Below, piece by piece: positions 10,945 through 11,111 of a stretch of DNA of 64,000 nt. Made by a program: the position numbers and the translations under genes. Each line of letters begins with the position of its first letter. The first letter of the stretch is position 1. Under the pieces are notes generated by a model. It was not told the DNA's origin, ran no database searches, and saw nothing but the letters and a program-made list of their open reading frames with translations. Origin of the DNA: an uncultured bacterium. Lineage in GTDB: Bacteria; Chlamydiota; Chlamydiia; Chlamydiales; FEN-1388. The DNA lies in NCBI GenBank assembly GCA_964487845.1, contig CAZASK010000002.1:47137-111136 (forward strand), given 5' to 3'.

Positions 10945-11111
10945 AGAGGAAATTGCAAAACTCCATTCAGGGCCAAATCCGCGCTTTTTTCGTCGCATTC
11001 AGATTTTTCGTAAATCACCTATGGCCAAAAGGATATGTCGATTTACGAAAAACTGAACCGACAAAAAAATCATCGAATTTGGCCTCCAAAGCGAGTTTTG
11101 CAATTCCCTCT
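10945..11111. repeat. 167-bp imperfect palindromic intergenic element (copy A of the family)
   Basis: The termini AGAGGAAATTGCAAAACTC (10945-10963) and GAGTTTTGCAATTCCCTCT (11093-11111) are inverted with one mismatch. An inner perfect inverted repeat is TTTTTCGTAAATC / GATTTACGAAAAA. The element fills almost the whole gap between the convergent stop codons at 10940 and 11112. Confidence 0.8.

Follow-up and report, generated by a model that had tools for sequence, protein, structure and literature searches.

Correia/NEMIS elements of Neisseria, RUP of Streptococcus pneumoniae and ERIC of enterobacteria are, like the repeat described here, intergenic sequences of 100-170 bp with inverted-repeat ends and short target duplications that can form a hairpin over their whole length, and they are often co-transcribed with adjacent genes. 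MITEs of 160-169 bp are found in the archaeon Methanosarcina acetivorans, for which the passages of PMC3852290 that deal with them name an IS1182-family partner, ISMac2, and give one entry with 4-bp direct repeats; the same passages state that the similarity of a MITE to its partner is often limited to the inverted repeats (Kamoun et al. 2013, PMC3852290). IS-derived MITEs such as that of the Cardinium endosymbiont of Oedothorax gibbosus are under-reported in endosymbionts (Halter et al. 2022, PMC9769881), and a paper on genome reduction and mobile elements in the Rhabdochlamydiaceae counts transposases without mention of MITEs (PMC9723776).

Here we describe a repeat, designated family A, from a Rhabdochlamydiaceae-like MAG (the source genome; 1.66 Mb in 55 contigs, 42% G+C, ~90% complete). 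The copy under study lies in the window, the whole stretch of 64,000 nt that was analysed, between a coiA-like gene and bioY. With a probability of about 0.88, the DNA from 10946 to 11110 is a non-coding fold-back MITE with IS1182-type (ISUnCu17-like) ends that was inserted into a 2-nt gap between these convergent genes. As selfish DNA it is of an ordinary kind. The family itself is apparently undescribed: no published description was found, and the end sequence is absent from indexed papers.

The spacer between the coiA-like gene and bioY

The earlier note had described the whole of this convergent spacer as one long imperfect palindrome, and an inverted-repeat search recovers all of its parts: outer arms at 10945-10963 and 11093-11111 (19 nt, 95% complementary), middle arms at 10969-10995 and 11059-11085 (27 nt, 70% complementary) and the perfect 13-nt inner stem (Table 1). 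Folding of both strands, suggested in that note as a check, gave -68 kcal/mol for the plus-strand RNA (z = -9.3) and -90.1 kcal/mol for the minus-strand RNA (z = -12.2), with none of 200 dinucleotide shuffles as good in either case. The palindrome is genuine and greatly exceeds what chance would produce.

Table 1. Features of the family-A locus and of the family-B locus in the window. For family A, the + strand is the orientation chosen for the family alignment.
Feature	Coordinates	Strand	Details	Evidence
CoiA-like gene	10107..10940	+	stop TAG 10938-10940, 5 nt before element	Pfam CoiA_nuc, E = 2.6e-8
Left target-site duplication	10942..10945	.	TTCA, 4 bp	sequence and family alignment
Family-A copy, very probably a MITE	10946..11110	+	165 bp, non-coding, fold-back over full length	alignment of 10 genomic copies; fold z-scores
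Left terminal inverted repeat (TIR)	10946..10963	+	GAGGAAATTGCAAAACTC	16/17 match to end of 1575-bp IS (GAGGGAATTGCAAAACT)
Central hairpin	11004..11052	+	perfect 13-bp stem (11004-11016/11040-11052) round a small apical stem-loop	compensatory changes across genomes (helix 6)
Right TIR	11093..11110	+	GAGTTTTGCAATTCCCTC	17/17 identity to 1575-bp IS end
Right target-site duplication	11111..11114	.	TTCA; holds bioY stop (TCA on + = TGA on -)	
bioY	11112..11702	-	stop 11112-11114 inside right duplication, 1 nt from element	Pfam BioY, E = 1.7e-34
Family-B MITE copy	8127..8287	+	ends AGACTTCTTTCGAAACTC and GAGTTTCGAAAGAGGTC; between tRNA-Ala and rpoD stop	11 full copies in source genome
Family-B duplication	8123-8126 and 8288-8291		TATT	flanks of 8127-8287

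The sole ORF within the element is a 55-codon TTG frame, which cannot be conserved because the copies of the family differ by indels. When the element and one TTCA are removed, the rebuilt empty site reads ...GTG TTA GCT TCA AGC..., in which 2 nt separate the stop of coiA (TAG) from that of bioY (TCA). The target tetranucleotide TTCA would therefore have contained the bioY stop, and its duplication on insertion would have restored that stop, leaving both genes intact and the element as the whole of the present spacer. The element presumably fills the entire gap because, before insertion, there was barely a gap to fill.

Family A in the source genome

The copy count proposed in the earlier note gave 10 full copies in the source genome, 86-95% identical to the copy at 10946-11110, two more that are truncated where a contig ends (C10:1-106 and C55:1562-1654), and several partial copies and solo ends. 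When the copies are aligned with their flanks, similarity ends sharply at GAGG...CCTC, and the four adjacent bases are the same on both sides of a copy and differ among copies. These 4-bp duplications are perfect in 7 of the 10 full copies (TTCA, TACG, TATT, AGTA, TTTC, TTTA and TTTA) and, when elements from other genomes are included, in 21 of 34, with a single mismatch in 8 more. The terminal repeats of 19 nt given in the earlier note do pair, but their outermost bases, A10945 and T11111, belong to the TTCA duplication, so that the true element is 10946-11110, 165 bp long with TIRs of 18 nt. The TIRs of this copy differ by one mismatch, and TIRs are conserved in all copies of the family. With the copies and fragments, the sharp boundaries, the duplications and ends that are shared with an autonomous IS of IS1182 type (below), the non-autonomous mobile element, one of the two readings offered in that note, is well supported.

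Symmetric deletion derivatives from 102 down to 22 bp are also present. The 54-, 53- and 22-bp forms retain both ends and perfect duplications; in the 102- and 34-bp forms the duplications are degraded. The 22-bp mini-palindromes (C2:20441-20462, C30:2061-2082 and C1:86775-86796) are two fused TIRs and seem to represent the final stage of symmetric internal deletion; the first two are flanked by perfect 4-bp duplications, TAAA and ATTA, respectively. A solo end of the family-A type (GAGGGAATTGCAAAACTG, 23731..23748, +) overlaps the 3'-end of a tRNA-Arg gene (23747-23819, minus strand) by 2 nt, the remainder of the element being missing, and a third 165-bp variant with the ends GAGGCTTTTCCAAAACTC / GAGTTTTGTAAAAACCTC lies at C28:10329-10493, 5 nt past an ORF stop and ~1.5 kb from a family-A copy.

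In a crude ORF map, each of the 10 full copies falls in a gap between long ORFs, and overlap with the 3'-ends of ORFs is confined to truncated copies. An element of the Rickettsia palindromic (RPE-like) type, for which in-frame copies inside genes are required, was rejected on these positions. The neighbours of the full copies form 2 convergent, 3 tandem and 5 divergent gene pairs, several copies begin 1-6 nt from a stop codon, and the orientation of the element is unrelated to that of the neighbouring genes, both orientations being found. This distribution gives no support, as a property of the family, to the bidirectional terminator that the earlier note proposed for this copy, and a G+C-rich stem followed by a T run is missing as well: there is no terminator-like site within 10946-11110 on either strand, and the stem is followed by CTTCAAGC on the plus strand and by TGAAGCTA on the minus strand.

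A very stable fold placed exactly between two convergent stops could also have evolved locally, as an intrinsic terminator or a structured ncRNA gene specific to the coiA-bioY spacer. This is highly improbable, as the same sequence recurs at 10 or more unrelated loci, each with its own duplication, and the terminator-like tail is absent. A search of 7500-12000 with Rfam 15 gave no family at the gathering score, with microRNA-precursor look-alikes (E = 0.09-0.85, far below their gathering scores) as the only matches. The gene pair is, moreover, not a conserved one: coiA and bioY are adjacent in none of 20 related genomes with CoiA homologues, synteny having been lost, and a metagenome scan for close relatives of this CoiA found none.

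The earlier note had also considered a REP-like repeat. REP/BIME-type extragenic palindromes, spread by a RAYT (IS200/IS605-like Y1) transposase, are likewise intergenic, palindromic and multi-copy, and some family-A copies do lie at gene 3'-ends. REPs, however, make no target duplications and have palindromes of 20-40 bp, as opposed to the 4-bp duplications and 165 bp found here; the 18-nt TIRs are identical to those of a DDE-type IS, and Y1_Tnp (PF01797) was not found in the source genome in a search to which control genomes gave matches. We consider a REP-type origin extremely unlikely.

A sister family within the window

The right half of the palindrome had been noted as homologous to a second element, at 8128-8287. 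The homology is real and partial: family A matches the element, here bounded at 8127-8287, over ~48 nt at 75-79% identity and in the left subterminal motif AAACTCCATT. The two share a subterminal backbone (AAACTCCATTTGG... and CAAAAATCATCRAT...CCAAAGCGAGTTT) and differ in their tips and centre, and the second element represents a sister family, family B, within one superfamily and separate from family A. Movement of family B by a TA-duplicating, IS630-like enzyme was considered and rejected, since a left boundary set at AGAC gives 4-bp duplications that co-vary between the two flanks (TATT, CATT, TAAT). Copies of family B in another genus are flanked by TAAT/TAAT. Given these co-varying 4-bp duplications, family B is an element of the same kind as family A.

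At the family-B locus, the rpoD stop TAG is the reverse complement of CTA at 8287-8289, made up of the C at the end of the element and the TA of the duplication, so that the element supplies the last base of the stop. Without the insertion, as in the rebuilt empty site, the rpoD frame would continue for 13 more codons and enter the tRNA-Ala gene, which lies on the opposite strand.

An autonomous partner IS

The complete 1.9-Mb genome of a member of the Rhabdochlamydiaceae (CAVQHD010000001.1) contains at least 11 inverted pairs of the end GAGGGAATTGCAAAACTA that are exactly 1575 bp apart. The IS that they delimit carries the same 17-nt end as family A, identical at 17/17 positions to the consensus right end of the family, and is flanked by perfect 4-bp duplications in all five copies checked (GAAA, ACTA, AATG, AATA and AAAT). 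Its product, a protein of 390 aa, has the domains DUF772 and DDE_Tnp_1. The closest annotated relatives of this protein are transposases of the IS1182 family, among them one named 'IS1182-like element ISUnCu17 family transposase', with which it shares 47% identity over 97% of its length. The best-matching NCBIfam model is likewise IS1182, but at 86.7 bits against a cut-off of 270, so that the assignment to IS1182 is based on the closest annotated relatives and on the end motif. The partner IS has been seen complete in this one complete genome and otherwise on short metagenome contigs. Metagenomic relatives of the transposase are very numerous, and those examined (71-88% protein identity) keep the end sequence.

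The similarity of the MITE to the IS is confined to the 17-nt end. Each end of the 1575-bp IS is itself a fold-back of ~105 nt, in which the inner terminal repeat pairs with an internal inverted copy. As the IS ends themselves fold back, the MITE mirrors their organization and plausibly descends from an IS end. Family A thus combines the features of a MITE, being short and non-coding, with TIRs, duplications of fixed length and variable sequence and dispersed copies, and with ends and a duplication length in common with an autonomous IS. The DDE transposase of the IS1182-family IS would act in trans to move the element, cutting AT-rich targets with a 4-bp stagger; such trans-mobilisation is inferred from these shared ends and duplications. 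The long hairpin would be a legacy of the fold-back IS ends, kept by selection or by arm-to-arm correction. Insertion into small pre-existing palindromes, as reported for some IS1182 relatives, was rejected on a flank complementarity of 26.8%, compared with 25.5% in controls.

A cognate transposase was not found in the source assembly by protein search, local tblastn or Pfam DUF772, nor in 22 genomes of the same bacterial family or in 5 other short-read MAGs that hold the MITE. The DDE_Tnp_1 matches of the source genome proved to be degraded remains of ISs and, on C54, an element of the IS1634 family. There are likewise no IS-sized pairs of ends in the source genome or at 26 loci of other MAGs, both of which have only MITE-sized pairs, solo ends and mini-palindromes. 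The sole IS-type trace lies at C19:1401-1421 (GAGGGAATTGCAAAACTAACA); it matches the end of the autonomous IS over 21 nt, includes IS-specific bases past the shared repeat and is possibly a remnant of a lost partner IS.

Most contigs of the source assembly (for example C2 at both its 5'- and 3'-ends, C4, C15, C20 and C36) stop at one of ~10 sequences that several contig ends have in common and that represent both termini of at least five multi-copy IS families, for example ...CTGGCGGGAATTGCTG; ...TTTACCAGTATAGTTCTG / ...CCTAAATTGCCCG; and ...AAACTTGGTTTAACA / ...AATTGGTGCGACA. The five IS families at the contig ends are other families, none of which has the family-A end. Since the contigs break at the ends of multi-copy ISs, the source genome carries a sizeable unassembled IS load. 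IS elements are often missing from MAGs and, with this dropout and an assembly ~90% complete, absence of the transposase from the assembly is not proof of its absence from the organism. The ten source-genome copies form one star-like group with a mean pairwise identity of 88.6% (11% mean divergence), which fits a single old burst in the lineage. Given that the searches for a cognate transposase were negative and that the copies share only ~89% identity, these are most likely orphaned, immobile relics of that burst.

Distribution among chlamydial genomes

An exact 24-nt search with the right end identified 26 loci, all in MAGs that are labelled Rhabdochlamydiaceae or Chlamydiae, or that evidently bear a wrong label. 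The elements at these loci have paired ends and lengths of 156-193 bp, and are 80-87% identical to the source copies, whereas the flanking genes align at only ~65-70%. Copies of family A cluster by genome. Matches to the end number ~50-107 in each of the other genomes, with at least 22 of those in CAVQHD010000001.1 being the IS's own ends, and several lineages have tens of elements of the family in each genome. Positions 4-7 of the terminal repeat co-vary between subfamilies (GGAA, CCTC, GTRC and CCAG), and the general end motif of the MITEs is GAG-N4-TTGCAAAA, with 4-bp duplications. That MITE copies are alike between genera with far more diverged genes hints at an exchange of mobile DNA among obligate intracellular lineages.

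Two further observations concern partial matches. In one genome of the largest genus of the bacterial family, the matches are limited to 48 nt of the central hairpin (ATTTTTCGTAAATC...GATTTACGAAAAAT) and the ends of family A are absent. At three loci of MAG nzgw621, the first 24 nt of the family-A end are followed by a different sequence (GCGGGTCCAAAAACGCCC...) in a repeat bounded by the direct repeat AAAATAACAAGAT, which may be a chimeric or composite element.

Conservation of the hairpin

An alignment of 24 elements from seven genomes gave a consensus fold of 51 pairs, in which 94.8% of the cells are standard pairs and 22 of the 51 pairs have changed on both sides; none of 500 shuffles, and no slid control, comes close. 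RNA of the minus orientation folds better than, or as well as, that of the plus orientation in 29 of 31 elements. Such upkeep of the fold could reflect selection, at the level of DNA or RNA, or arm-to-arm correction of the palindrome.

It could be explained if the element, a MITE by origin, had been co-opted by the host at the RNA level, with the hairpin serving as a barrier to read-through, an insulator of convergent genes or a stabiliser of mRNA 3'-ends. The compensatory changes, the stability of the minus-orientation RNA, the closer similarity of the elements than of their flanking genes between genomes and the start of several copies within a few nucleotides of a stop codon all point in this direction. 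There is, however, no T run past the stem on either strand, the copies occur in both orientations relative to adjacent genes, and half of the full copies are flanked by divergent genes, a setting in which termination would serve no obvious purpose. The strand asymmetry is found mainly in the conserved outer arms, and is therefore mostly inherited rather than independently evolved and is not counted here as evidence for an RNA function. In the consensus helices, G-U cells (~42) are similar in number to A-C cells (~30), and arm-to-arm correction of a DNA palindrome gives the same apparent covariation without selection. Co-option across the family is, on balance, improbable; a role as an RNA barrier restricted to the coiA-bioY locus is possible.

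A broader proposal is that the hairpin itself is the functional unit, either as a structure that an IS1182-type transposase needs or prefers at its ends, or as an RNA element recruited by compact intracellular genomes and passed horizontally from one chlamydial lineage to another within hosts that they share. It is suggested by the presence of the same TIR-hairpin-inverted-TIR module at both ends of the partner IS, together with the compensatory changes across genera and the greater similarity between genera of the elements than of the surrounding genes. We put this forward as a speculative and rather unlikely reading.

Comparison with described elements

Read as a MITE, family A accounts for several odd spacers in the source genome, in which stops touch a long palindrome and contigs break inside repeats, and supplies, for the annotation of environmental chlamydiae, a repeat family that is defined by a consensus, by the ends given above and by a 4-bp duplication. 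Knowledge of how MITEs work is unchanged by it. The classical MITEs Correia/NEMIS, RUP and ERIC differ from family A in sequence, target site and partner transposase, the target of Correia and RUP being TA. Effects on RNA processing and stability have been demonstrated experimentally for Correia and ERIC; family A is known here from sequence alone.

The Cardinium MITE resembles family A in being derived from an IS and in having an obligate intracellular host, but its partner is an IS982 element, its host belongs to another phylum and it is lineage-specific, whereas family A spans several genera (PMC9769881). The ISMac2 MITEs of M. acetivorans are closer in form, being non-coding elements of ~160-169 bp with TIRs (~25 nt there), 7-14 copies and an IS1182-family partner; they differ in their archaeal host and unrelated sequence, and the passages of PMC3852290 that treat them make no mention of a full-length conserved fold-back or of a distribution across genera.

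ISUnCu17, on the Aeromonas caviae plasmid NZ_AP026405.1, has the ends GAGCCTCTTGCAAAA / GAGCTTCTTGCAAAA (GAGCYTCTTGCAAAA) and the 4-bp duplication ATGA, and so shares with family A both the end motif and the length of the duplication. Its ends are identical over 15 nt to those of a MITE subfamily in a sister genus, and the transposases of ISUnCu17 and of the chlamydial partner IS share 47% identity. Unlike family A, ISUnCu17 is an autonomous IS of ~1.5 kb from the Proteobacteria and not a MITE and, in contrast to ISUnCu17, the chlamydial partner IS has long subterminal fold-backs at both of its ends.
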